From the sequence record PQ478073.1: a DNA stretch of 64,000 nucleotides. One strand, given 5' to 3'. Both the position numbers and the translations under genes were made by a program. The stretch's first letter is position 1, and each line of letters opens with the position of its first letter. The notes below the pieces were generated by a model that had not been told where the DNA came from, did not search any database, and saw only the letters and a list, made by a program, of their open reading frames with translations. Shown here piece by piece: positions 1-59,831 of the stretch. Origin of the DNA: a phage.

Positions 1-3000
1 TTTAAAATCAGCTTTGTAATCTTCAGCAGCACTGTTTCCAAATAAAGGTAAGTACTCAGCACTATGCCAAATGATACTATCACTAATGACTATTTTTTGT
101 TCAACATCTTTGAACATATCTTTTAATTCAACCGATGTTGGTGGTTTAGGAATACTACCAACAGCATTATTTTTCAACCAAACGTCAACTTCAGTTTTAT
201 ATGAATTGGTTAATACATACATATCAATTAAGTTTGTTCTACTAGGATCAATGCGATTGTCGTCAGGTGCATAGTGTTTCCAATGGAAGTCTATACTAGT
301 ACGTGCATTAGTTTTAACAGTGTACTGTGAAGTAACATCTTTGTATCCATAATAATCTAGCTTCTGATTCTCGTCAGCATTAGTTCCCATGTTATTAATT
401 GCACGATAAAAAGCCAATTCAGGACTAACAGTGCCAGTATCATCGGAATAAGTTAAATTACTAATTAGTTGTCCCAAACGATCATTGTTATTGCCAACTG
501 TTTGTTCAATAAAATAATATTTACCATCATAGTTAAAACCAACTAAAAATCCAGAACCTTTACTATATAATCCACTCAATGTGGTTGAACGAATTGCGTT
601 ATTTCTAACAAATTCAGTTCTTTTATATGCATTCGGCTCTGCCAAAGCTTGTTCCATTGTATAAGACCACGATGAATCAAGAAGTGTGAAGGTATCATTT
701 GGTAACGACAGTACTGATATAGTGAAATCACTATTTTCCTGAAATACCAAAATACCACCATATTTTAATGCATCGGTTCCAGTCCAAGTAGGAACAATTT
801 CTTTAAATTGGTTTGGTTCCAATGGTATACCATTACTATCTACTTTCCTAGATGTAACAATAACACGAGAACCATCTAGATAGCCATTCTCTTGTTGAAT
901 TGTGTCATAAATTTGAAAATCTATATTACTTGTCAATCCTGAATTACTACTACTAGTAGTGTTAGATGATAAAATTTCAATCTTATCACTTTGAACTGTA
1001 CCAGTACTTATATCAGTAATTTTTTTAGATGATACAAAGTAAAATCTTACTTTTTCTCCACCCACAAAAATATATTCAATACCGTTAGCATCAAATTCCC
1101 AAGTTTCTGCTGTATATTTTACATTTATTATAATTAAAACTTCATTACCATTATACACAATAGTATCGTCATTAGTACTTGCTTCGATTGGAACCCATGA
1201 AGTTGTTTCTTTATCATGTACAATTACAAAATCGGTTTTTTTATCCAACATAGCAGAAATAGACTGAACTTCAACTGTGTTAAATCTAGTTCTATATGGT
1301 AATATGTACTCTATTGCTTGCATTCCACTAGGAACAGATGTGCTTAGTACATAAAAACCATTATCTAACACACTTACAACACTTGCCCATATCGTAGTAC
1401 CAGAATTAGAAAATTTAATAAGAGTACCTACCTGATACGAACCATACACTGTTCCAGACGAACCCAAAATTCTGCCATATGTATTGGTTGTGTAATTTGA
1501 ATTGTACACTGGAGTCCATGCTTGTTGTATTTCAATACCAATTGTATTGGATGGATACGCTTGATAACGTTGTATTACTGCATTTTCCCCAATCAATGGT
1601 TGAATATTGTCAATAACAATACTAGCATTTGTTTTTGTAGTTGGGAGCAATAACGATCTATTAAATTGCGTGTTTTCTTGATATAATGCACCATCATCAC
1701 TAAAAACGTCGGTATTCTGATACTTACCAGTAGGATCATTGATATCAATGAACCTTGATTGACCACTATAAATTCTATTAATAGCTTTAGATTTAAGTAC
1801 TGTATTTCCTAAACTAAGTGGTGCTATATTATAATCTTCACCATTGACAAAACGGTTTTGGGTATAGTACATTTGTGGTGCACGTGCTTTAATCTGCTCA
1901 ATAGTTTCAGCACTTTGTGCACGGTCGGACTCATATTGTAATGAAAAACGTATATCCAATGTACTAGATTCATAACTTGACTGTGTTTTTGTACGATATG
2001 TATATTTTACGCTTTTATTTTGAATTTCAGAAGTTTTAATGTTATATGTTTTACCATTACTAACACGATACCATACACGGAACGTCCCACGGGGAACAAC
2101 ACCACTTCTTGAGTCTGGGTACTTAATTGTTATTTGGTCTTTATCACGAGTAGTAACAGCAAAAATTGTTTTTAATTGACGATTAACAGTGTTATATGCA
2201 ATACTTTCCATTGATGGAACTTTTGTCCATTTGGTACGAACAATACCATCTTCATTTATTTCTTGAACCCATACATCAGTTTCGTTGATATTATCAACGT
2301 TAATATCTTGTATACGGTTCTCTTCACGGATAGCATATTGATAATCTTGATATGTTAATGTACCTTGTACGAAATATACAAAAAACCCAGTATTTGGTGA
2401 GCTAAATCCATTACCATCATTTTGATAAACAATATATTTTTGCTCTTGTGGTTCTGGATGTCGTTCTTCAACACCAACAGACGTAATGTCAGGATTCACT
2501 ACTTCAAATGTCATAGATTCACCATTGACAGTTGCAATAAATGGAATACTGGGTGCTGTCATTGGGATGGTGTTCATTCGATATAGTTGACGGGAGACAC
2601 CATTAACATCAATACGCTTGACTGGATTACCAAATTGGTTAGTACTGACAAATGAACTGTTCATTACTAGAATAAAGTTTTCATACCAGTTAGCATCCAT
2701 CGGGTCATTCCAACGAATAATTTTATCTTTTAATGATTCATTAAAACTATTACGAACATCTTGGTTTGTTTTAATTTCGGTTAATTTAGCAACTGCACGA
2801 CCTGGATATGAGCGGCGTGGTGAGTAAGAAATCATTTTAGCTAGTTTTAGTACTGATGCACGACGAGTTGCAGTATCTAAAAAGTTTTCACGTGTGTTCA
2901 AATCCATACGAAATGCCAAGTTCTGACCTAGCATAGAAATCGTATCTAAAATAAAAATAAACTGGTCGTTTTCGATCCAGTCATTGAATGAGTCTGGGTA

Positions 3001-3141
3001 AGTTGCACGTAGATAATCAATCATACTCTGACGGATAGTGTCGAAATCATAAGCTGTTAGATTGATTTTATAAAAACTTTCATATACTTGAGTCCAATCC
3101 TCACCAGCGTATAAATTTGATTGCCTTTTTTGTTGTGACAT
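1..3141 (-). CDS. large baseplate wedge protein, gp6/gpJ-like (partial; runs off window edge)
   Basis: Hand translation of minus strand from ATG at 3141 gives an uninterrupted frame of >1040 codons (MSQQKRQSNLYAGEDW...) to the window edge; follows spike-lysozyme-gp25 in conserved baseplate order. Confidence 0.5.
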   Translation of the reverse strand, partial: MSQQKRQSNLYAGEDWTQVYESFYKINLTAYDFDTIRQSMIDYLRATYPDSFNDWIENDQFIFILDTISMLGQNLAFRMDLNTRENFLDTATRRASVLKLAKMISYSPRRSYPGRAVAKLTEIKTNQDVRNSFNESLKDKIIRWNDPMDANWYENFILVMNSSFVSTNQFGNPVKRIDVNGVSRQLYRMNTIPMTAPSIPFIATVNGESMTFEVVNPDITSVGVEERHPEPQEQKYIVYQNDGNGFSSPNTGFFVYFVQGTLTYQDYQYAIREENRIQDINVDNINETDVWVQEINEDGIVRTKWTKVPSMESIAYNTVNRQLKTIFAVTTRDKDQITIKYPDSRSGVVPRGTFRVWYRVSNGKTYNIKTSEIQNKSVKYTYRTKTQSSYESSTLDIRFSLQYESDRAQSAETIEQIKARAPQMYYTQNRFVNGEDYNIAPLSLGNTVLKSKAINRIYSGQSRFIDINDPTGKYQNTDVFSDDGALYQENTQFNRSLLLPTTKTNASIVIDNIQPLIGENAVIQRYQAYPSNTIGIEIQQAWTPVYNSNYTTNTYGRILGSSGTVYGSYQVGTLIKFSNSGTTIWASVVSVLDNGFYVLSTSVPSGMQAIEYILPYRTRFNTVEVQSISAMLDKKTDFVIVHDKETTSWVPIEASTNDDTIVYNGNEVLIIINVKYTAETWEFDANGIEYIFVGGEKVRFYFVSSKKITDISTGTVQSDKIEILSSNTTSSSNSGLTSNIDFQIYDTIQQENGYLDGSRVIVTSRKVDSNGIPLEPNQFKEIVPTWTGTDALKYGGILVFQENSDFTISVLSLPNDTFTLLDSSWSYTMEQALAEPNAYKRTEFVRNNAIRSTTLSGLYSKGSGFLVGFNYDGKYYFIEQTVGNNNDRLGQLISNLTYSDDTGTVSPELAFYRAINNMGTNADENQKLDYYGYKDVTSQYTVKTNARTSIDFHWKHYAPDDNRIDPSRTNLIDMYVLTNSYKTEVDVWLKNNAVGSIPKPPTSVELKDMFKDVEQKIVISDSIIWHSAEYLPLFGNSAAEDYKADFK

Positions 3142-3206
3142 AATTTATTCCTTTAAATCAGTAAAGTACTAGTTCAGTACTGGGAATTATATATAGAAAT
3201 ATTTAT

Positions 3207-3238
3207 TCAAAAAGAAAAGCACTCCGAAGAGTGCTTTT
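3207..3238 (-). terminator. intrinsic terminator
   Basis: AGCACTC-cgaa-GAGTGCT hairpin with T-run on minus strand, after gp25-like gene. Confidence 0.55.
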
Positions 3239-3242
3239 ATAA

Positions 3243-3638
3243 TTATAAAGACGAAACTGAATATGTTGCCATTCGGTTATTACTTCTAGCATCAAATACA
3301 ATAGTAAGTTCTTCTAATGCATCTAATACTACATACTCTAATACGATGTTCATTTGATAACCATATTCTATTCTTGAAATTTGCAATTTCTTGAGATTCA
3401 ATCTTGGATCTAAGCTAATTATTCTACGGGCATCTGCTTCTAAAAGGTTGATAGTATTATAACCTTCTAGTTCAAATAACAAATCCCATGCAATAAAACC
3501 ATAGTCCGCATCAAATGCTCTTTCGCCTTTTTTTGTGTTAAAATGATTCATTAAATCTTGACGAACCAGTTCACTATCATACAATGTTTCGGTTCTACCC
3601 ACAACAGGAGTATGAAATCCTTTAAAAACAACTGCCAT
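3243..3638 (-). CDS. baseplate wedge subunit, gp25/GPW family
   Basis: 131 aa; TKKGERAFDADYG...LFE...PRL...IEY pattern matches recalled T4 gp25 (TRKGSRPFDPEFG...LFE...PRI); terminator just downstream. Confidence 0.7.
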   Translation of the reverse strand: MAVVFKGFHTPVVGRTETLYDSELVRQDLMNHFNTKKGERAFDADYGFIAWDLLFELEGYNTINLLEADARRIISLDPRLNLKKLQISRIEYGYQMNIVLEYVVLDALEELTIVFDARSNNRMATYSVSSL

Positions 3639-3652
3639 TGATTATTCCTTTA

Positions 3653-4141
3653 TTATACGGATTCAACGATACGTGCCATCTTTTCCGCTCTTGAAGTGGT
3701 TTGTTTATACCAAGTACTATCACGCATTTCTTTACCAGCAGTTTTGTAATCACCCTTACCCAAAGCAGTGAGTGCTTTTTTGAATTTCAAAACTTTGGTT
3801 TTGCCCATTTGGAATACCATTAACCATAATACACGTTGTACTTGGACTGGTGCGGTCATACCAAATTGTTCATAAATTGATTTTGCATCATTGTACGCAG
3901 TTTGTGCATCTTTAAGAAGAAGTTGGTCAGCTTGTGATTCAGTTAGTCCATTTTTGAAGTTTTCACCTGGAAGAACTAGATGACCATAACCAATAGTATC
4001 AAGACCTAAGCTGTCTTTATATACCCAAAACTTATCATTTTTAAAATAACCAAGTTTTTTCTGGTATGCAATTGTACCTTCAAATTCTTTTACTTCTTTG
4101 AAAAATTGCTCATCTGTATTTTTAATTTCCCATTTACTCAT
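3653..4141 (-). CDS. e: endolysin, T4 lysozyme-like (GH24)
   Basis: 162 aa; catalytic E...D...T triad context EFEGT...KDSLGLDTIGYGH; TATAAATA late box upstream on minus strand. Confidence 0.85.
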   Translation of the reverse strand: MSKWEIKNTDEQFFKEVKEFEGTIAYQKKLGYFKNDKFWVYKDSLGLDTIGYGHLVLPGENFKNGLTESQADQLLLKDAQTAYNDAKSIYEQFGMTAPVQVQRVLWLMVFQMGKTKVLKFKKALTALGKGDYKTAGKEMRDSTWYKQTTSRAEKMARIVESV

Positions 4142-4157
4142 AAAGATATCCTCGTTT

Positions 4158-4165
4158 TATTTATA
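4158..4165 (-). promoter_or_regulatory. T4-type late promoter box TATAAATA (endolysin)
   Basis: Exact TATAAATA on minus strand 17 nt upstream of ATG. Confidence 0.5.
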
Positions 4166-4177
4166 GTGCTAAAATAT

Positions 4178-6841
4178 TTATTGACATGCCTCCAAACGAC
4201 GAGCCATTAACTCCGCACGGCGGGTGGTTTGGCGATACCAAGCAGAATTGCGGATTTGTGCCGCTGCTTGTTTATAATTACCTTTTGCCATTTCTGATAA
4301 CATAGTTTTAAATTTCAATACACCACCTTTACCCATCTGAAATACCATTTGGCATAGTACTTGTTGAGCAAGATAAGGAGTTTTCATGTTATATGAAGCA
4401 TAAATTGATTTGGCATCATAAATTGCTTTACTACTATCACGAACTAACATATCATTTGCTTGTTGTTCAGTTATTCCATCAGAGAAGTTTTCACCGCTAA
4501 CAATTAAGTGACCGTAACCAATAGTTGGATATCCACGACTATCTAAATAACGCCAGAACTTACCATTACGATAATACCCCTTTGCTTGTTGATATTGTAA
4601 TGTACCCTCATATTCTTTTAATTCAGAAATAAACTGAGCATCACCAGGAACAACTTTCCAATCTATGGCTGTTTTATCAACATTACCTATATTATAAGTT
4701 GGTTGCTCAACTGGCGTAGTTGAAACACCACTTCTTTGTGTTCTTCTTCGACGAGGAACATGTCGTGAACCACGTTGTGAATAACCTGTACCAATTGTTT
4801 TAATTTTTGTAGTAACTACTAATTCATCACTATCAACAGAAGGTTGCACTACTGCTTGAGGTGCAGATTGATTGGTTGCTTTTCCTGCAATTAATGTTTT
4901 ATTGGCTGCGTCAGAACCAGTACCAGTTTGAGATGCATAAAATAGACCCGGATCAACTGAACCGCTAAAACCAAGCACGTTAGCTGATGTAACACGTATT
5001 TCAAACTGTATAACACCATTTGCTTTACCAACAACTTGGCCTTTTTGAACAACATCTTTGTTTAATAAATCAGATTGAATATTATAAAATACAGATTTAT
5101 ATCCTGACTTATGTTGTATTAACAGTGCACCATTAGTAATTACTATTACACCACCATCGGGTGCAACTATGTCACCTTTACATTGTATTTCCCATCCAGA
5201 ACGATCTGACTTCCCACCACTTTGTGTTGGAACACCTTTCCCCCAATAACCATATTGGCGAATAGTACCACTACATGGCATGAACATATGTAAACCTTCA
5301 TATGTAATACTATATCCAGTCATCCCAGGGTCAGATGTCATTAAATCTTGAGATTGCACTTGTTCAGTTTCTGATGTATAGTTAACAAACTGAACAGCTT
5401 CAGTGTCTTGTGCTACGGGTAATTCTGGTGATACATCATTTGCTGGTTGTGGTTGTACTGGTGATTCACTAGAACCACTTCCACCACCTTGTCTTGGTGG
5501 TTCAACATAACTACCATGATTTTCAGCGTTAACCCATGCAGCAATATCATGAATGTGTTCATTAAGACCAGCAGATGGTGTTCTAAAGTTTGGTGCAGTA
5601 AATTCAGCAGTACCGCTATTACCACCACTATTAACTGTTAATGTTTGACCACCACCACTAATAATTGCTGATGATGATCCAATTAGGTTTGCAGATGTTG
5701 CGGCAGAAATAGAAGCATTTGAACCAGCCGTAATATCAGTACTGCTACCACTTTGCATACGTAATGATGCAGCAGTAACTAAACGAAGGTCTGCCCCAGA
5801 ATTAACAACAACTTGTCCACCAACTTTTGCATCAAGAGCACCAATTAGATCTAATTTAGTATTTGCACCAACTCGTGCATTGAAATCTTGTCCGGTTTCA
5901 ATATTATATGAACGTCCAGCAGTAATATTAATATCTTGACCAGCACGAATATTAATATTCTTATCACAGTGCATGTCAATATCACCTTCACCAGTGAATT
6001 TTATACGTGCAGTGCCATCACGGTTAATTAAAAGAACATCACCAGTAGCTTCTGATAAAAGAAGTTGTGCACCACTACGTGTTTTTATTACGACACCTTC
6101 ATTTTTACGAGAACCAACACGTGTATCGTTTACTGGGTTATTAAATTGTGTATCTTGATATCCATCTGGGTCTTGATCCCACGTTGGTGCTGTTAATTCC
6201 TCTTCAGTATATCCATCATCAATAATAAAACTATTACCACGTGGCGAAGACATACCATATACAGTACTGGTGGTTTGTCGAGTACTACTACGATTCGCCA
6301 ACCCAGCTTCTTCGTCATATAAAAGGTTTTGCTTTTTAAGACCTGCGATAATTGGAACGTTAGCATATTTGTCTTGCATATCGGTAGTGATAGTGTTACG
6401 ATCATAGTCAGTAACAGGAAGTGGCATATCAGTTCCACCATAATTACTTACTTCAGTTGCCATGCCTGGAACCATAGTATTCATACGCTGGTCATATACA
6501 CAACCAATCCAATATGCTTGGAATGTACGGGCTTGTGCAAAAATTACAACAACTGTACACCCTACGTCTGGTGGTACTGCCCAAAAACCGTATCCTTTTG
6601 GATATTGACCATATGCATCAGCACTTGGAATACCTGGTGTTTTACCAGCAAAAGGAGACATGTAAGATGCTTCTATCCATGATTCTTTTGAGTTTTTATC
6701 ACTTTGAGAACCTTGTATCCAAACTTTCAGTTTTCCTGATTTAGTTGGATCTCTGTTATCCATAACAGTTGCTAACTGCGGATAAGATGGGTCAAAACGA
6801 CCCAACTGCTGTTGTGCATACTTTTTACTTGTATCTGCCAT
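4178..6841 (-). CDS. baseplate central spike, gp5-like, with beta-helix repeats, degenerate M23-like region and C-terminal T4-lysozyme domain
   Basis: 887 aa; N-terminal gp5/VgrG OB-fold-like segment (GFWAVPPDVGCTVVVIF...YWIGCVYD), G/S/T/N-rich repeat region, C-terminal EYEGT...DSRGYPTIGYGH ~50% identical to adjacent endolysin. Confidence 0.75.
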   Translation of the reverse strand: MADTSKKYAQQQLGRFDPSYPQLATVMDNRDPTKSGKLKVWIQGSQSDKNSKESWIEASYMSPFAGKTPGIPSADAYGQYPKGYGFWAVPPDVGCTVVVIFAQARTFQAYWIGCVYDQRMNTMVPGMATEVSNYGGTDMPLPVTDYDRNTITTDMQDKYANVPIIAGLKKQNLLYDEEAGLANRSSTRQTTSTVYGMSSPRGNSFIIDDGYTEEELTAPTWDQDPDGYQDTQFNNPVNDTRVGSRKNEGVVIKTRSGAQLLLSEATGDVLLINRDGTARIKFTGEGDIDMHCDKNINIRAGQDINITAGRSYNIETGQDFNARVGANTKLDLIGALDAKVGGQVVVNSGADLRLVTAASLRMQSGSSTDITAGSNASISAATSANLIGSSSAIISGGGQTLTVNSGGNSGTAEFTAPNFRTPSAGLNEHIHDIAAWVNAENHGSYVEPPRQGGGSGSSESPVQPQPANDVSPELPVAQDTEAVQFVNYTSETEQVQSQDLMTSDPGMTGYSITYEGLHMFMPCSGTIRQYGYWGKGVPTQSGGKSDRSGWEIQCKGDIVAPDGGVIVITNGALLIQHKSGYKSVFYNIQSDLLNKDVVQKGQVVGKANGVIQFEIRVTSANVLGFSGSVDPGLFYASQTGTGSDAANKTLIAGKATNQSAPQAVVQPSVDSDELVVTTKIKTIGTGYSQRGSRHVPRRRRTQRSGVSTTPVEQPTYNIGNVDKTAIDWKVVPGDAQFISELKEYEGTLQYQQAKGYYRNGKFWRYLDSRGYPTIGYGHLIVSGENFSDGITEQQANDMLVRDSSKAIYDAKSIYASYNMKTPYLAQQVLCQMVFQMGKGGVLKFKTMLSEMAKGNYKQAAAQIRNSAWYRQTTRRAELMARRLEACQ

Positions 6842-9430: not shown

Positions 9431-10251
9431 TAAATGAATCCTCCTTTACGTAATAGTTCACCACGTTTGAATGCATTGAGGTTGAACGTTTTAGTCATAT
9501 AATCCGATGTTGGTTGTTCTTCAAGTTGTAACATAACTGAGATTTTTTGTGGAACCCAAACTTCATCTTGTGGGTTCATATATCCAGTACTTCTAAGTTG
9601 TTCGAAGAATTTTCTACTATCCATGTCGGATAAATTAAAAGTACTATCGCTACTATTCAACGGAACTTGAATATAAGAAACATCATTTGGGTAAGTAAAA
9701 TTATAAGATTTTAAAATAACAGGAATATCATTATATGTATAACGACCATATCCACTTAGAAGTAAGATTGGTGGTGGTGCACCTGCAATTGCGAGTTCGG
9801 GGTTATTAGCCGAAGCAGCTTGTCTACCAAAATCCATCAACGAAACAGAACGTATAAAATGAACACATGCCAACGCATACATAGCTTCTGCTGCTGTATT
9901 CGCATAAAATTCACCCTGAATCGTGAAAACTGTATTAGTAGTGTTCTTATAGTTGTTATAGTTACTGTTAGTATGTATAGGGGACTGTGTTTCATACTGA
10001 ATTGACCTTTGTTCAGTAATTGTTGGTGTTACAGTCCAAACCAACCCATTAGTTGGACGCAGAAACGAAAGTAGAGTTGGTTCGGAGCTATCTCCAAAAT
10101 CACCATATACATAGTTAGCACCTGCGGCTTTAGGTCGTAATCGAATTCTACGATCAATCATCTTTTTGATTCTCCATAATAAGGGAACATTTGATGTATT
10201 TATACGTGGGACAAACTGCTTTTTGGTGCTATAATAACATTGATGGTACAA
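9430..10251 (-). CDS. hypothetical baseplate/tail protein
   Basis: 273-aa ORF at head of minus-strand baseplate operon; true start may be an internal Met. Confidence 0.45.
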   Translation of the reverse strand: MYHQCYYSTKKQFVPRINTSNVPLLWRIKKMIDRRIRLRPKAAGANYVYGDFGDSSEPTLLSFLRPTNGLVWTVTPTITEQRSIQYETQSPIHTNSNYNNYKNTTNTVFTIQGEFYANTAAEAMYALACVHFIRSVSLMDFGRQAASANNPELAIAGAPPPILLLSGYGRYTYNDIPVILKSYNFTYPNDVSYIQVPLNSSDSTFNLSDMDSRKFFEQLRSTGYMNPQDEVWVPQKISVMLQLEEQPTSDYMTKTFNLNAFKRGELLRKGGFI

Positions 10252-10292: not shown

Positions 10293-11132
10293 ATGACAAA
10301 TAGACCAAAGCGTAAAAAGTATCTCAATAATGCTGATTTACTTCGTGAAATACAAAAAAGTAAAATTTCATATTGCTGGTTATTAGACAAATCATATAGT
10401 ATGTATGATTATATTGTTTTTCATGAGTCAGAAATTACTGCTGAGTTACTAGAAAAAGCTAAGGCAGCACGAATTAAACGACTGAACAATGAAATGCTTG
10501 ATAGTATTCGTGAAAAGGAAAATATGAGTGCTAAAAAAGCTAAAGAATATGCAGATGAACACAATTTAGTTATCACTGACGTTCCAATTGATGAAGTTGT
10601 TATTCGTGTTATTACAGATGAACATATTCCACCAGATACTAGAGTTAACTTTGAACCATTCAAGCATTATATTGTAGATAATGAAGGTATTCTCTATGAA
10701 GTTTGTCGTTCTCACTGGAAAGGCGACCTTGAAACTGGTGAATTCAGTACTGTTCATGGTAAAATTACAAATGAACTTGGGAAGATGTTCATTAAACTTG
10801 CAGAGGAAATCTCACACAAATCTAATTACAGAAACTATACATACTTAGATGAAATGATGGGTGATGCAAGAATACAATTAGTTAAAAACGCACTTCTCTT
10901 TAAAGAGAGCATTCTTTATAAAAAAGATAAACCAGCAGTTCAGCTAAATCCTTTCTCTTACTATACATCATTCGTAAACAATAGTTTTCGTTCTATATTG
11001 AATAGTGAGAAAAATGTTCGAAATATACGTGATGATTTACTTGAAATGCATGGCTTTACGCCATCACATACACGTCAAATTGAAATTGAATTGAACATGA
11101 TTGAAAGGAAAAATGAAGATGGCTCTGTTTGA
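10293..11132 (+). CDS. 55: late-transcription sigma factor, gp55-like
   Basis: KKYLNNADLLREIQ and NPFSYYTSFVNNSFRSILNSEKNVRNI match recalled T4 gp55 ([39 protein letters not shown]); ~100 aa longer than T4 gp55. Confidence 0.65.
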   Translation: MTNRPKRKKYLNNADLLREIQKSKISYCWLLDKSYSMYDYIVFHESEITAELLEKAKAARIKRLNNEMLDSIREKENMSAKKAKEYADEHNLVITDVPIDEVVIRVITDEHIPPDTRVNFEPFKHYIVDNEGILYEVCRSHWKGDLETGEFSTVHGKITNELGKMFIKLAEEISHKSNYRNYTYLDEMMGDARIQLVKNALLFKESILYKKDKPAVQLNPFSYYTSFVNNSFRSILNSEKNVRNIRDDLLEMHGFTPSHTRQIEIELNMIERKNEDGSV

Positions 11133-16732: not shown

Positions 16733-16740
16733 TATTTATA
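16733..16740 (-). promoter_or_regulatory. late promoter box TATAAATA (zinc-ribbon late gene)
   Basis: Exact TATAAATA on minus strand 35 nt upstream of ATG at 16698. Confidence 0.5.
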
Positions 16741-16828
16741 AGACTAAAAAAGATTAAATTAAACTAATTTTTATATTCTCTATAGTTTCATAAATATTTC
16801 TATAATACATCTATTAAAAGGGAATGTT

Positions 16829-22689: not shown

Positions 22690-22697
22690 ATATAAAT
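22690..22697 (+). promoter_or_regulatory. late promoter box TATAAATA (scaffold gene)
   Basis: Exact TATAAATA ~50 nt upstream of ATG; overlaps 9-bp palindrome. Confidence 0.5.
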
Positions 22698-22745
22698 ATC
22701 TGTATGTTGAAGTACAGATATTTCAGTACTTAAAGGAGAGAACGA

Positions 22746-23899: not shown

Positions 23900-23907
23900 T
23901 ATAAATA
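23900..23907 (+). promoter_or_regulatory. late promoter box TATAAATA (major capsid gene)
   Basis: Exact TATAAATA within conserved TAAATAATATCATAC motif, 46 nt upstream of ATG. Confidence 0.55.
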
Positions 23908-27095: not shown

Positions 27096-27135
27096 GAATA
27101 AATATAGTATATATTAATCATAAAGGGATTTATAC

Positions 27136-29362: not shown

Positions 29363-29665
29363 ATGGCTAAATCTAAAAAAGAAGTTAAAGTTGAAATTCG
29401 TGATCTAAACGATGAACAACGTAAACGTCTCGGTGACGCACTTAACAACATTGTTGTACAACTAACTTTCATTGATGATACCAAAGCATCCTTATCTGAT
29501 TTTGTTTCTAGTGTTTCTGATGAACTTGGTATCGATGCATCTGATATCAAACAAGCTGCACAACGTATGTACAAAGGTGATTACTTTGACAAACAAAATA
29601 AACTCGATAATATCGAAACTATTCTTAGTGTTACTAATAATCTTCCACAAGCAGATGATTACTAA
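29363..29665 (+). CDS. small DNA-binding protein, possibly DsbA-like
   Basis: DELGIDASD...Y segment resembles recalled T4 DsbA DELGVDGKMF; GGAG RBS; terminator follows. Confidence 0.3.
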   Translation: MAKSKKEVKVEIRDLNDEQRKRLGDALNNIVVQLTFIDDTKASLSDFVSSVSDELGIDASDIKQAAQRMYKGDYFDKQNKLDNIETILSVTNNLPQADDY

Positions 29666-33301: not shown

Positions 33302-34033
33302 ATGGATCTACGCAACGTACTACGTGACCTCGTAAACACAACCAGTGGTATTGACTTCTCTTGTATTGCAGTAAGCAGTGAAGACCGTGGTGAAGGACAA
33401 CGTGTATATCTAGAAGCGTACACAGATGACCGAACTCTTGTAATGCGAGCATATACTAAAGAAGATGTTCCTGAAGTTCAGGGTCGTTTTGGCTTAGGTA
33501 ATCTAGGTCTTCTTCAGGGTCTAATGTCTCTAAAAACATACAGTACCGAAGGAACCACAATCACATCAAATGTTAAAGATGGTTCAGTTAAAAGTCTGGC
33601 ATTTAAATCTGAAGATGCAAGCACTACATTTATGGTACAAGCTGAAAAACTTATTCCAGTTCAACCACGTTTTCATGAACAACCATATGACGTACAGGTT
33701 ATTCCTAGTGCAGCAAAAGTTCAGGAACTAAAGAGTTTTTCTGGTGTATTTAAATCTTTTAGTTCTCTTGTAACTCCGTATACTGAAGGCGACACCCTAT
33801 ACTTTCACGTTGGTGAGAAAAACAAAAGTAACCACGTTGGTTCTCTAGCTTTTTCTAAAACTGAAGGTGAATTAGGTCTTGGTTTTGGTTATAATATTGA
33901 TCGCGTACTTCAAGCATTATCTCGCGTATCTAATGCCGAATCAGTATCACTTGGTATTACTAAAACTGGTATGCTAAATGTAACACTAGATACTGGAATT
34001 GCAGTATACAAATTTTACGTAACAGGCTGCTAA
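33302..34033 (+). CDS. hypothetical protein, possibly sliding clamp (gp45-like)
   Basis: 243 aa; weak pattern similarity to recalled gp45; family-type promoter at 33209-33238. Confidence 0.3.
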   Translation: MDLRNVLRDLVNTTSGIDFSCIAVSSEDRGEGQRVYLEAYTDDRTLVMRAYTKEDVPEVQGRFGLGNLGLLQGLMSLKTYSTEGTTITSNVKDGSVKSLAFKSEDASTTFMVQAEKLIPVQPRFHEQPYDVQVIPSAAKVQELKSFSGVFKSFSSLVTPYTEGDTLYFHVGEKNKSNHVGSLAFSKTEGELGLGFGYNIDRVLQALSRVSNAESVSLGITKTGMLNVTLDTGIAVYKFYVTGC

Positions 34034-34305: not shown

Positions 34306-34605
34306 ATGAAAATTAAAATGATTAATGATTACGTTCTTGTTCGACAAATTGAAGCACAGAATAAAAGTACTGGTGGTATTATTCTAGGTAATGTTGAACC
34401 ACCATGTATTGGGATGGTAATTTCCGTTGGTCCAGGTAAAATTCTTCCGAACGGACAACTTGCAGAACATAATATTAAAGAAGGTGATATGGTTGTGTTT
34501 GGTCGTTCATCTTTGAACACACCACTGACTGAAGATCTTGGTGGCGGCGAAGATACATATTATGTAATGAAAATCGAAGAGATTTTTGGTAAGAAAAATG
34601 GCTAA
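34306..34605 (+). CDS. GroES-like co-chaperonin (gp31 functional analogue)
   Basis: INDYVLVRQ...KSTGGIIL...GMVISVGPG...GDMVVF matches GroES; GGAGG RBS. Confidence 0.75.
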   Translation: MKIKMINDYVLVRQIEAQNKSTGGIILGNVEPPCIGMVISVGPGKILPNGQLAEHNIKEGDMVVFGRSSLNTPLTEDLGGGEDTYYVMKIEEIFGKKNG

Positions 34606-35323
34606 AAAGAAATTTATTCCATTTTGGATGGTCCCTGCTCACTGGGGACTTTCTGGAAAGGCAAAAGAGATAGCTAAAGCATACTACTACAATGATGATT
34701 ATGAAGCTGATATGAAAGTTGCTGAATTGACATATCTAACTCCATATGAAGTTGAAGTGGCCCAATTGGATATTAAAAAGAAATATAGCGTAATTGGAGA
34801 TTTGGAATATCTAATTGCTGTACTTGATGTTGAACTAAAATATTCTAAAATTACTCGTGAACAGTATGATGTTAAAGTTCTTGATGCAAAACTAAGTATT
34901 GGAGTTATTACAGAAAAAGAATATGATATGGAAATCATTGAGTTAATGCCAGAAGGTGATGAAAAAAGGCTTAAGGCTATTGAATTTGCATATCGTTACG
35001 ATGAAATCACACAAAGTGAATATTCTAAGGAAATATACACACTTCGTAAAGAACCTTGGATTGATTTGGATGTTGTTCTTGATCCTGAAACTAATGAAGT
35101 TGAGTTTGTATTTGACTATAATGAATATTTCTGGAAAAAGTTGAAAGCTGAAGGTCATCCAGGAAATGATGAAGAAGAAATTATCGATAACTTTGTGAGA
35201 GACTTGGGGCGTAAACTTGCTACGGATGATTTCAGTGATGATTACGACACAAAGCTGGTGAGTGCGAACGAAGGATTAGACAAGCTACCTGGTTTGCCTG
35301 AAGGATTTCGTTCATATAGATAA
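34598..35323 (+). CDS. hypothetical protein
   Basis: 241-aa ORF overlapping end of GroES-like gene. Confidence 0.5.
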   Translation: MAKKKFIPFWMVPAHWGLSGKAKEIAKAYYYNDDYEADMKVAELTYLTPYEVEVAQLDIKKKYSVIGDLEYLIAVLDVELKYSKITREQYDVKVLDAKLSIGVITEKEYDMEIIELMPEGDEKRLKAIEFAYRYDEITQSEYSKEIYTLRKEPWIDLDVVLDPETNEVEFVFDYNEYFWKKLKAEGHPGNDEEEIIDNFVRDLGRKLATDDFSDDYDTKLVSANEGLDKLPGLPEGFRSYR

Positions 35324-35327
35324 CATA

Positions 35328-35362
35328 TAAAAAAAGGAGAGCAAATGCTCTCCTTTTCTTTT
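35328..35362. terminator. bidirectional intrinsic terminator
   Basis: A-run, GGAGAGC-aaat-GCTCTCC, TTTTCTTTT; lies between convergent genes. Confidence 0.6.
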
Positions 35363-35370
35363 GAAAAATA

Positions 35371-36060
35371 TTAAACCAATGCTGGGATGTATTGGAAAAG
35401 TTTAACACCGAAATCACCTGCTGCATCAGCAGATTGGGAACGTAGGTAAACTTCGGTAACACCATCTTTAGCAAGTAGTGGAACACCAGTTAGATCATCA
35501 ATTAGTAGACGGCCTTCTTCGGATTCAGTACTTGGTACACCTTGTGGTGATTTAAGATCTTTGTTAAAGACACCAGCACGTTCAACTAGGAAGGTAACAA
35601 CAGAAGCATCAGCAATACTAACTGAACCTGCACTCAATACACCATCAGGTGCGTTGGTGAAACCAGTAACTGGAAATACTTCAAGACCATTACCTGCGAT
35701 GTTAGAGGTAGCGATGATAACCGCACGTTGTTGAACAACATCGACAATACGTTTAACGTTAGTTTGTGCTGCATAAGATGCATTGTAATCAGCTTCTAGT
35801 GTGCCAAGAACAAATGCAGTTCCATCAATACGTTTGATACCTTTATCATTTAGATATGCTAGAATTTCTTCTGGAATATCAGTGTTTAGAAAACGTTGTA
35901 GACCAGCATAAGAAGAAACTGCACCAGTAACTAGAACGTTTACGTTTCCTAGCTTACTGATAGCAATGGATGCTAGGGCGTTAGTGCCACAAAAGTAACC
36001 TAGAATACGTTCAAAGGAATAACCATTGATACGTTCAAAAGAAGTATTAGTATATGACAT
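35371..36060 (-). CDS. abundant late protein, paralogue A
   Basis: 229 aa; shares QQRAV...T(S/T) and ER(A/Q)(G/D)VFNK(D/Q) with adjacent gene; high-expression codon usage. Confidence 0.6.
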   Translation of the reverse strand: MSYTNTSFERINGYSFERILGYFCGTNALASIAISKLGNVNVLVTGAVSSYAGLQRFLNTDIPEEILAYLNDKGIKRIDGTAFVLGTLEADYNASYAAQTNVKRIVDVVQQRAVIIATSNIAGNGLEVFPVTGFTNAPDGVLSAGSVSIADASVVTFLVERAGVFNKDLKSPQGVPSTESEEGRLLIDDLTGVPLLAKDGVTEVYLRSQSADAAGDFGVKLFQYIPALV

Positions 36061-36074
36061 AATCTATCCTCCTA

Positions 36075-36674
36075 TTATAGTTGAACAGGAAGAGCAGCAC
36101 GTACTTTAATTGCTACAGCAGTAGATGCACCTGCATCACCAACACCATCAGTACCTTGACTTACGAAAGTTTTGGTACGGAAAACTTTAGCTTGAGCGAT
36201 AGACTTAGCTAGGTCAACAGTTGGATCAACTGGAGCAGGACATGCTGAACCAGGACGAACTTCTTGCTTGTTAAATACGTCTTGACGTTCACAGATGAAA
36301 GTCAATGCAACAGAATTAGCACCACCTGCTACATCAGCACCACTAGTGCCGAACGCAACTACGTTTGGATTAGCATTTTTGAAATCAGCAGGAATAACAA
36401 CTTCTGAATCAAGAGCTAGTAGAGAGGTAGTAACTAGAACTGCACGTTGTTGTAGTAGTTGGGTAACCATGAATAGGTTATATTGAGCATTACTTAGAGC
36501 AGTTTGATACGCTTCAGCTTGAACATCAGAACCGTCAGAAGTAACTTTGGTAGTACCTAGTTCAACATCAGTTGGTAGATCGATTACGATGGTAACGAAA
36601 CCGTTATTACCACCCCACCATTCGCGAGCAACGCTAGACATACCATAGTTACGGTTAAAAGAATTAAGACTCAT
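36075..36674 (-). CDS. abundant late protein, paralogue B
   Basis: 199 aa; paralogue of 35371-36060; conserved ATAAATAATATCATA motif ~100 nt upstream on minus strand. Confidence 0.6.
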   Translation of the reverse strand: MSLNSFNRNYGMSSVAREWWGGNNGFVTIVIDLPTDVELGTTKVTSDGSDVQAEAYQTALSNAQYNLFMVTQLLQQRAVLVTTSLLALDSEVVIPADFKNANPNVVAFGTSGADVAGGANSVALTFICERQDVFNKQEVRPGSACPAPVDPTVDLAKSIAQAKVFRTKTFVSQGTDGVGDAGASTAVAIKVRAALPVQL

Positions 36675-36797
36675 GAAAATCTCCTTGTCAAATTTTGTGC
36701 AGGTATATCCTGCTTAAAGTTATTTATCAAAAAATATCACTAGCATTTAAATTTACTGAGATATTTAATGAATTTCTATGATATTATTTATCAAATC

Positions 36798-36835: not shown

Positions 36836-42093
<5,258 letters not shown>

Positions 42094-51101: not shown

Positions 51102-51158
51102 ATTAGTTCCATAAATATTAGTATAAATTTATACCTATTATTTATGGAAGGAAAAACT

Positions 51159-55621: not shown

Positions 55622-55677
55622 TTGTGATAAATATCATAAAGCAAGACAGAGGTCTTTTTATTTTATATGGAGAAATT

Positions 55678-58570: not shown

Positions 58571-59290
58571 ATGTACACACCACCAATTGTTAGCAGATAT
58601 ACATATGTTGGTTACAATAGAATTGAAGGCGGCCCAGAAGGTCGCCTTTATTCAACTCCAACAGGTAATCTGCCGTCAGTAACAACAATTCTAAGTGCGA
58701 CCTCGAATGACGAAGGTTTAAAGAAATGGAGAGAATTTGTTGGTGAAGAAAAGGCTAATGAGATTACATTAGAAGCATGTACAGTTGGTACTTTTATGCA
58801 TGAGAACTTGGAATTTAGATTGGAAGGAAAGCCAGACCATGAAGGCGGTATGCCAATTCGAGTTCTTGCACGTAGAATGGCTGACAAAATTCAGCAAGAA
58901 GCATGGCCTAGAATTAATGAAGTATGGGGACAGGAAGTCCCATTGTACTATGAAGGTTTATGGGCCGGAACAACTGATTTAGTAGGTGTTCATGATGGAA
59001 TCCCAACCATTATGGATTATAAAAATTCCCGTAAAGTTAAGAAGTGGGGACAAATTGAAAATTATCGTATGCAAATTGCAGCATATGCATTAGCCCATAA
59101 TCAAATGTTTGGTACTAATATAGAACGTGGTGTGATTTTCATCTGTGTAAGAAAAGATCCTAACAATCTACAATATCAAGAGTTTGTCATAGAAGGACAA
59201 GACTTCAAAGATGCAGTCAATATGTGGATTGAACGTGTAGAACAATACTATATTTTACGTGGAGAAATTGAATCAAATGGAGCAGCATAA
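58571..59290 (+). CDS. PD-(D/E)xK nuclease, RecB/Cas4-like
   Basis: GTTDLVGVHD ... IMDYK motif. Confidence 0.5.
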   Translation: MYTPPIVSRYTYVGYNRIEGGPEGRLYSTPTGNLPSVTTILSATSNDEGLKKWREFVGEEKANEITLEACTVGTFMHENLEFRLEGKPDHEGGMPIRVLARRMADKIQQEAWPRINEVWGQEVPLYYEGLWAGTTDLVGVHDGIPTIMDYKNSRKVKKWGQIENYRMQIAAYALAHNQMFGTNIERGVIFICVRKDPNNLQYQEFVIEGQDFKDAVNMWIERVEQYYILRGEIESNGAA

Positions 59291-59831
59291 AAAAATGAAA
59301 CAAGATCTATATACAATTCGTGCACTAGTAAGTAAAGGTTATGATTTAGAAGAAGTAATTAAACTTAGTGAAGAAGATATTGATAAACTTGATTTATCAA
59401 ATAAGCTAATTCTAAATATCAAAGATTATAAACAACGTGGTGCTAAACCTGTTGAAGAAATTAAAGAACAAATTGCACAAGATATTAGTGTTGATGAAGT
59501 ATCACGCAATGTACCACCAGAAGTTATCCAAGAGTATGTTGTTGATAGTGAAGAACAAGTTAAAGTTTCTGAAGAAGTTGAAATTATTGCAGAAGAACTT
59601 GCTCCTGAATTGGAAGAAGATGAAGTTGTTATTGAGCGTGTTGTTTCATCTAAAGAAGATTTGGACATTATCAAAGAAGCATTACAGACCAAAGAATTTA
59701 AAAGTGTTTCCAACTATGTTAAACATTTAAAATCTTTAGTACCAGAACAAATTTTATCTTCTGTAGATAGCTCAGTTGTATCTCAACTAATTAATGAGCG
59801 TATTGCGGAAGTTAAAGAAAAAGCTAAATAA
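59259..59831 (+). CDS. hypothetical acidic protein
   Basis: 190-aa E/D/K-rich ORF. Confidence 0.45.
   Translation: MEKLNQMEQHKKMKQDLYTIRALVSKGYDLEEVIKLSEEDIDKLDLSNKLILNIKDYKQRGAKPVEEIKEQIAQDISVDEVSRNVPPEVIQEYVVDSEEQVKVSEEVEIIAEELAPELEEDEVVIERVVSSKEDLDIIKEALQTKEFKSVSNYVKHLKSLVPEQILSSVDSSVVSQLINERIAEVKEKAK

Follow-up and report, generated by a model that had tools for sequence, protein, structure and literature searches.

The gene pair and its abundance in virions

The window analysed here is a 64,000-nucleotide stretch of phage DNA (record PQ478073.1), and its subject is a pair of adjacent minus-strand genes at positions 35371–36674. The promoter-proximal gene (36075–36674, minus strand) encodes a 199-amino-acid protein of 20.9 kDa with an isoelectric point (pI) of 4.8, and the promoter-distal gene (35371–36060, minus strand) encodes a 229-amino-acid protein of 24.3 kDa with a pI of 4.6. 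The products are called P199 and P229, respectively, and their genes are separated by a spacer of 14 nt. An initial annotation, made from the sequence of the window alone, had described two neighbouring minus-strand genes with products of 229 and 199 amino acids inside a plus-strand region. The list of open reading frames (ORFs) returned exactly these coordinates, and the strand island was confirmed by the plus-strand neighbours, which encode DNA polymerase, GroES, RNaseH, TerL, and SSB. The pair is among the most abundant virion components and is confined to the RaK2/121Q-type clade.

At the DNA level, the locus matches Escherichia phages BAU.Micro_ELP-22 and JP4 with 100% identity, PBECO4 and phAPEC6 with 99.8%, and 121Q with 98.7%. 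The window comes from an Asteriusvirus jumbo coliphage of the PBECO4/121Q/phAPEC6 type, whose relatives are jumbo myoviruses of approximately 350 kb in the RaK2-like clade. No single checked record is identical to the whole window; relative to OR699282.2 (BAU.Micro_ELP-22), small indels shift positions by −4 to −6 before approximately 27 kb and by +6 after approximately 57 kb. P199 is 100% identical to phAPEC6 gp210, 121Q gp618, and PBECO4 gp504 (tblastn), and the counterparts of P229 are phAPEC6 gp211, 121Q gp617, and PBECO4 gp505. In RaK2, the orthologs of P199 and P229 are gp107w (ORF107w) and gp106w (ORF106w), respectively. The RaK2, phAPEC6, and 121Q genes, together with CBB_270/271 and GAP32_264/265, are the same genes (PHROG 9326), with identities to the pair of 100% in phAPEC6, 121Q, and PBECO4, 69% in RaK2, and approximately 50% in GAP32 and CBB. 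The window adds another isolate of a known species group and no new family member.

Published mass spectrometry (MS) detected both proteins in the virions of three phages, which bears out the earlier view of P199 and P229 as virion proteins. Their presence in the virion rests on these data for orthologs and, in the case of phAPEC6 gp210, for the identical protein. MS coverage in phAPEC6 was 69.8% for gp210 and 69.9% for gp211, compared with 74.9% for the major capsid protein (MCP) and 68.0% for the sheath. In RaK2, coverage was 53.5% for gp107w and 55.4% for gp106w, beside MCP and sheath values of 26.5% and 28.3%, respectively; in CBB, it was 91.3% for CBB_270, 56.4% for CBB_271, and 68% for the MCP. 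The 2013 RaK2 paper called gp106w (24.6 kDa) and gp107w (21.1 kDa) distant relatives of one another. In its discussion of the sodium dodecyl sulfate–polyacrylamide gel, it named both beside the MCP and the sheath, citing their abundance, and the only other protein mentioned there by name was one tail-fibre protein. Both proteins migrated at their predicted size. Publications of 2013–2020 already cover the genes, their paralogy, and their virion abundance, so this part of the finding is known. The present analysis adds evidence against a tail-tube role, the prediction of an orphan fold, putative tandem late promoters with a covarying leader hairpin, and an argument for a copy number on the scale of the capsid.

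Codon usage points to strong expression. The codon adaptation index (CAI) was scored against the MCP gene and compared with 59 other genes of the window. P199 ranked highest (CAI 0.727; effective number of codons, Nc, 30.1) and P229 fourth highest (CAI 0.676; Nc 30.5), in agreement with the earlier remark that the pair shares the biased codon set of the MCP. In the closest complete genome, the tail sheath gene (CAI 0.639) and the best tail-tube paralog (tube1, 0.543) both fall below the pair. Two small plus-strand genes of the window also score high, namely 29363–29665 (100 amino acids, CAI 0.693) and 59277–59831 (184 amino acids, CAI 0.638). Their presumed phAPEC6 orthologs are absent from the virion proteome, which has no entry at the corresponding genome positions.

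Paralogy, family, and predicted fold

P199 and P229 align over 89 amino acids with 35% identity (BLASTP, E=8e-9). This match includes the blocks QQRAV(I/L)(I/V)(A/T)TS and ER..VFNK, which the initial annotation had picked out as shared. In an alignment of 105 sequences, both paralog groups align end to end at approximately 25% identity, and the Q, R, V, and S of the first block and the E and R of the second are invariant. The profile phrog_9326 ("virion structural protein") matches P229 (E=4.5e-86) and P199 (E=1.3e-86) across positions 1–195 of its 195. Judged by sequence, the two proteins are true paralogs, with an additional helical insertion after strand 1 in P229. Searches of Pfam, NCBIfam, and PDB sequences with the single proteins and with the 105-sequence profile gave no match, which extends the earlier failure to place the pair in a T4 family.

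Three apparent leads were examined and rejected. The label "hemagglutinin repeat-containing" on phAPEC6 gp211 has no Pfam support. An R/S/E motif resembling that of ADP-ribosyltransferases has unsuitable spacing and lies in an unsuitable fold. A 73-residue match (E=3.5e-8) to P0168, a 1054-amino-acid LamG/Ig protein, was judged to be a repeat or compositional match to an "AEYxAxYAA" segment.

The extent of the family was determined by word-indexed and exhaustive profile searches over 5.8 billion and 1.84 billion proteins. The family comprises 125 clusters at 90% identity and 42 representatives at 50% identity, and it is found only in jumbo phages of approximately 350 kb or in metagenomic contigs. 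Apart from a few fragments, its members are approximately 140–300 amino acids long and have no Pfam domains, and no informative domain fusion was found in these searches. Loop insertions vary across the family, including one of approximately 90 amino acids in some members. Three metagenomic proteins of 290–300 amino acids (P0157, P0158, and P0161) carry an insertion of this length near the C-terminus with repeated GGxGY-like motifs, suggesting a surface-exposed region that tolerates extra domains. P199 is 53% identical to its counterpart in phage EJP2, whose MCP is 91% identical, and by this comparison the pair evolves much faster than the MCP.

The paralogs are adjacent in every genome examined, and synteny is the same as far as the fetched flanks extend. 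In PBECO4, G17, phAPEC6, 121Q, RaK2, GAP32, and CBB, a divergent RNaseH gene lies on one side, and a convergent gp212c-like gene and GroES lie on the other. The order of RNaseH, pair, and convergent gene is also found in EJP2, Munch, pEa_SNUABM_50, XbC2, XaC1, and Turkey5, where the 1200-nt flanks end before GroES; Turkey5 has one small extra ORF between RNaseH and the pair. In a distant relative, Vibrio phage 2.275.O, a third paralog lies between a PIN-domain/RNaseH-like gene and the pair, and the three adjacent paralogs occupy positions 1135–1818, 1928–2482, and 2502–3206 of the retrieved locus (L010).

AlphaFold2, run with the family alignment, modelled P199 with a mean predicted local distance difference test (pLDDT) score of 87.3 and a predicted template modelling (pTM) score of 0.83; the values for P229 were 82.9 and 0.81. 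The predicted core is α/β, with a β-strand and a 26-residue helix followed by a small sheet with short helices. At the N-terminus of the modelled monomer, the first 12–15 residues have a pLDDT below 50, and confidence is low to approximately residue 20 (averages of 45 and 53 for residues 1–10 and 11–20, respectively). The nearly invariant residues R7, G10, G21, and N23 lie in or beside this segment, and a conserved N-terminus modelled with low confidence would typically mark an arm that gains its order during assembly. Foldseek comparison with all PDB chains gave no significant match (best E 0.21). Against BFVD, it returned the family itself and, from uncultured phages, two or three uncharacterised proteins that carry no annotation (E 1.5e-5 to 1.3e-2). 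Virion proteins of solved structure, whether tube, sheath, HK97-fold, or decoration proteins, were not among the top Foldseek matches listed. The models thus describe a confidently predicted α/β fold that has no solved structural relative.

Putative late promoters, leader hairpin, and operon structure

Two late-promoter-like elements precede the P199 gene. The distal element, GATAAATAATATCATA (36777–36792, minus strand), holds an ATAAATA core at 36785–36791 and also the 14-mer TAAATAATATCATA (36777–36790, minus strand), which lies 103 nt upstream of the P199 start codon. This 14-mer is the conserved late element to which the initial annotation had referred. The MCP gene (23902) and an acidic head gene (21138) each have an exact copy immediately upstream, and a copy with one mismatch precedes the gene at 40742. 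A distal ATAAATA occurs at about the same distance in RaK2, GAP32, and CBB. The proximal element is an ATAAATA core at 36721–36727 (minus strand) within TTGATAAATAAC, 53 nt from the P199 start codon. For comparison, the leaders of the orthologous genes in Asteriusvirus, Alcyoneusvirus, Mimasvirus, Eneladusvirus, and a Vibrio phage, 11 in all, were aligned. The TxATAAATA positions of the proximal core are invariant in all 11, and conservation is lacking on their upstream side. Nearly all leader positions from TTGATAAATAAC on are conserved, through a stem-loop and the AAGGAG Shine-Dalgarno sequence.

In the window, the core motif lies almost only a short way upstream of genes. ATAAATA occurs 22 times, fewer than the 36.9±6.5 copies expected, and 20 of the 22 lie within 200 nt upstream of the start of a same-strand gene, mostly a virion gene. 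Other copies include those at 4158–4164, 10197–10203, and 16733–16739 on the minus strand and at 16790–16796, 22692–22698, 23901–23907, 27098–27104, 51111–51117, and 55627–55633 on the plus strand. This placement provides a usable late-promoter map of the phage. A gp55-like late sigma factor is encoded at 10293–11132 (phrog_234, E=8e-18). Both hallmarks of T4-type late genes were therefore found, namely TATAAATA-like −10 elements upstream and a gene for a gp55-type sigma factor. We infer from these motifs that the pair would be transcribed late from two tandem T4-type late promoters.

Immediately after the proximal promoter, the 5′ untranslated region contains the stem-loop GCAGG-AUAUA-CCUGC (36699–36713, minus strand), with a minimum free energy of −9.1 kcal/mol (z=−2.7). 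Across 10 distinct leaders, the stem is paired in 40 of 40 cells, and three of four pairs have changes on both sides; compensatory changes are present in RaK2 and a Vibrio phage. This element is probably a 5′-terminal hairpin that stabilises the mRNA. A similar inverted repeat, CCAGG...CCTGG, was noted in the leader of the third Vibrio paralog.

The Shine-Dalgarno sequences of the two genes were read from the sequence. That of P199 is AAGGAG at 36681–36686 (minus strand), where AGGAGA is invariant in the leader alignment, and that of P229 is AGGAGG at 36068–36073 (minus strand), inside the 14-nt spacer. This spacer leaves no room for a separate promoter, and P199 and P229 therefore form one operon. 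Intergenic spacing of 14–18 nt is also found in RaK2, GAP32, CBB, and others. Downstream, the terminator scan detected an intrinsic terminator hairpin at 35329–35360 with T-runs on both strands, between P229 and the convergent gp212c-like gene on the plus strand. The records of phages G17 and Munch list this hairpin as a terminator. The scan found no terminator in the 5′ flank of the pair, which is a divergent promoter region. For this reason, the earlier statement that the pair is flanked by bidirectional terminators is half right: it holds for the 3′ hairpin and fails on the 5′ side. The interpretation of the pair is unaffected by the missing second terminator.

Possible roles in the virion and neighbouring genes

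Cryo-electron microscopy of phAPEC6 (10 Å) and 121Q has described three features that bear on the role of the pair. These are a ridge density present once per MCP and not linked to a named protein, a fibre-anchoring protein in the centre of each hexamer, and an inner body that is sensitive to radiation and measures 91 x 18 nm. According to the phAPEC6 authors, their MS data did not assign the ridge protein. The MCP of the window is a gp23-type protein of 391 amino acids (Pfam Gp23, E=1e-89), which by our own estimate has little mass to spare for a further domain. The quantitative argument made in this analysis would place the copy number of the pair on the scale of the capsid. Taken as a whole, P199 and P229 are the strongest candidates for a component of the outer layer or of the inner body of the 121Q/phAPEC6 T=28 capsid.

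Between these two locations, the capsid surface is tentatively favoured, and a role of the pair as decoration or cement proteins is a serious possibility. It is favoured because the RaK2 paper names the orthologs in connection with the gel and cites their abundance, because the proteins are acidic (pI 4.6–4.8), slightly hydrophobic, and apparently uncleaved, and because several orthologs have no N-terminal extension, the pair evolves faster than the MCP, and loop insertions are tolerated. Small, late, very abundant capsid accessories of the dispensable type, encoded away from the head-gene cluster, are a familiar class that includes T4 Soc/Hoc, lambda gpD, and T5 pb10. These would be functional analogues only. 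They are single decoration proteins, whereas two paralogs, evolving faster than the MCP, may bind the capsid here. Neither the proteins nor the family profile gave a PDB sequence match to Soc, Hoc/Ig-like proteins, the gpD β-tulip, the Dec OB-fold, or pb10, and no significant fold match to them was obtained.

The pair would be transcribed late from the tandem T4-type promoters, read by the gp55-like sigma factor, into an mRNA that would begin with the conserved stabilising hairpin. The two cistrons would be translationally linked and would yield roughly equal amounts of protein. In a decoration role, P199 and P229 would use their conserved extended N- and C-terminal arms to bind the gp23-like MCP lattice on the T=28 head. 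The pair would then explain the outer density seen in phAPEC6 and 121Q, which could be the once-per-MCP ridge network, the hexamer-centre anchor, or both. A narrower proposal, that the cement is a 1620-copy ridge lattice reinforcing the T=28 head of RaK2/121Q-type jumbo phages, is rather doubtful. If true, it would add to the decoration proteins of gp23-type capsids a structural class that has so far gone unrecognised.

Several points weigh against a place on the capsid surface. The evidence for it is circumstantial: the proteins are abundant, their codon bias exceeds that of the sheath gene, and phAPEC6 and 121Q show a density present once per MCP. Copy number can be gauged only roughly from MS coverage and codon bias, and the late timing is deduced from motifs. 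The predicted fold resembles no known decoration protein in the Foldseek comparison. The description of the ridges from cryo-electron microscopy names a single ridge protein, whereas two paralogs are encoded here and three in the Vibrio phage. Other small virion proteins of phAPEC6, namely gp347, gp306c, and gp253, also have high MS coverage. Phage phiKp24, the only RaK2-associated phage with high-resolution maps, was considered as a guide and proved uninformative, as its MCP is large and of another kind and it lacks decoration proteins.

The pair could instead be internal head proteins that build the 91 x 18 nm cylinder with spooled DNA in 121Q and phAPEC6, although the chance of this is fairly small. 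The inner body has been seen in both phages with no proteins assigned to it, and by our own arithmetic the cylinder could hold several hundred copies of each 20–24 kDa protein, which would fit the abundance of the pair. The genes lie approximately 11 kb from the head-gene cluster, and their promoter 14-mer is common to the MCP and acidic head-core genes. A precedent exists in phiKZ, a jumbo phage with a bubblegram-positive inner body, whose inner-body proteins are abundant internal head proteins and a set of paralogs. A cited reference describes the phiKZ proteins as extensively processed by the head protease, whereas the RaK2 orthologs of the pair run at the mass predicted for them and show no trace of cleavage during maturation. 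A conserved N-terminal extension is lacking in several orthologs, and the conserved core of the P229 orthologs from Mimasvirus and Eneladusvirus begins at residue 2–3, seemingly too early to allow for a cleavable targeting peptide. Acidic, slightly hydrophobic proteins are also an unlikely match for proteins embedded in DNA. The phAPEC6 authors found no phAPEC6 protein similar in sequence to the phiKZ inner-body proteins and favour RCC1-like proteins as the inner body.

A further possibility, proposed in 2013 for RaK2, would make one of the pair the tail tube or some other repeating component of the tail. The RaK2 authors relied on size, abundance, and predicted β content, and both proteins are labelled "putative tail protein" in the RaK2 MS table. 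Myovirus tail-tube proteins of the T4 gp19 type (phrog_45, phrog_4542) are indeed similar to the pair in size (20–25 kDa) and high copy number. However, they differ in predicted fold and show no profile similarity, and separate tube paralogs lie beside the sheath gene. In the closest complete genome (L008), three genes of 228, 258, and 364 amino acids at 2077–4741, outside the window, directly follow the sheath gene in the canonical tube position. They match tail-tube PHROGs, strongly in the case of phrog_4542 and phrog_13438 and weakly in that of phrog_45 (E ~5e-4). PDB sequence searches with these paralogs gave no match, so their identity rests on the PHROG matches and on gene position. RaK2 gp042 and gp043 correspond to these tube paralogs and were detected in RaK2 virions. 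The pair itself is not downstream of the sheath gene, which is approximately 83 kb away in the closest record.

Profile-profile comparison (hhalign) of the P199/P229 family with the tube paralogs gave a probability of 0.1%, and neither P199 nor P229 has a tube-type β-sandwich fold in its model or profile similarity to tube families. The pair has a higher CAI than the sheath gene, and the sheath protein is present in approximately 150 copies. Tail decoration in phAPEC6 is limited to a few rings, implying a low copy number. The hhalign result, the non-tube fold, and the codon bias above that of the sheath gene together make the 2013 proposal very unlikely. Of the candidate roles listed in the initial annotation, tube is therefore disfavoured, and decoration and internal protein both stay under consideration. 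It is also highly improbable that the pair are abundant passengers with a non-architectural role, such as an injected enzyme or an anti-defence protein. Pfam, NCBIfam, and PADLOC-independent searches gave no match to a catalytic family, the abundance of the pair is far above that of typical injected enzymes, and both paralogs are kept side by side across the genomes examined.

Assigning the pair would complete the parts list of widespread jumbo phages, including therapeutic candidates against E. coli, Klebsiella, Salmonella, and Erwinia. If P199 and P229 prove to be abundant, surface-exposed, insertion-tolerant capsid proteins, they would offer a natural display scaffold.

Some neighbouring genes were also noted. 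The convergent neighbour of the pair (34598–35323, plus strand) encodes an acidic protein of 241 amino acids (phrog_13349) and overlaps the GroES-like gene. Its counterpart lies between the GroES-like gene and the pair wherever the fetched flank was long enough, in PBECO4, G17, phAPEC6, 121Q, RaK2, GAP32, and CBB; in the Vibrio phage, there is a short gap and no overlap. RaK2 virions contain the protein (gp105, 21.7% coverage), and the phAPEC6 list has no entry for it. The gene at 33302–34033 (plus strand), located downstream of the DNA polymerase gene, encodes a 243-amino-acid protein that matches phrog_12062 and has no Pfam match; in phAPEC6 virions, it was found as gp215c with 26% coverage. 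On the other side of the pair, an ORF of 227 amino acids at 38411–39094 (plus strand) overlaps the start of the large terminase gene (39069–40709, plus strand) by 26 nt. Its homolog is annotated as a fragment of the terminase large subunit in GAP32 and CBB, and the two ORFs could represent a split or frameshifted terminase.

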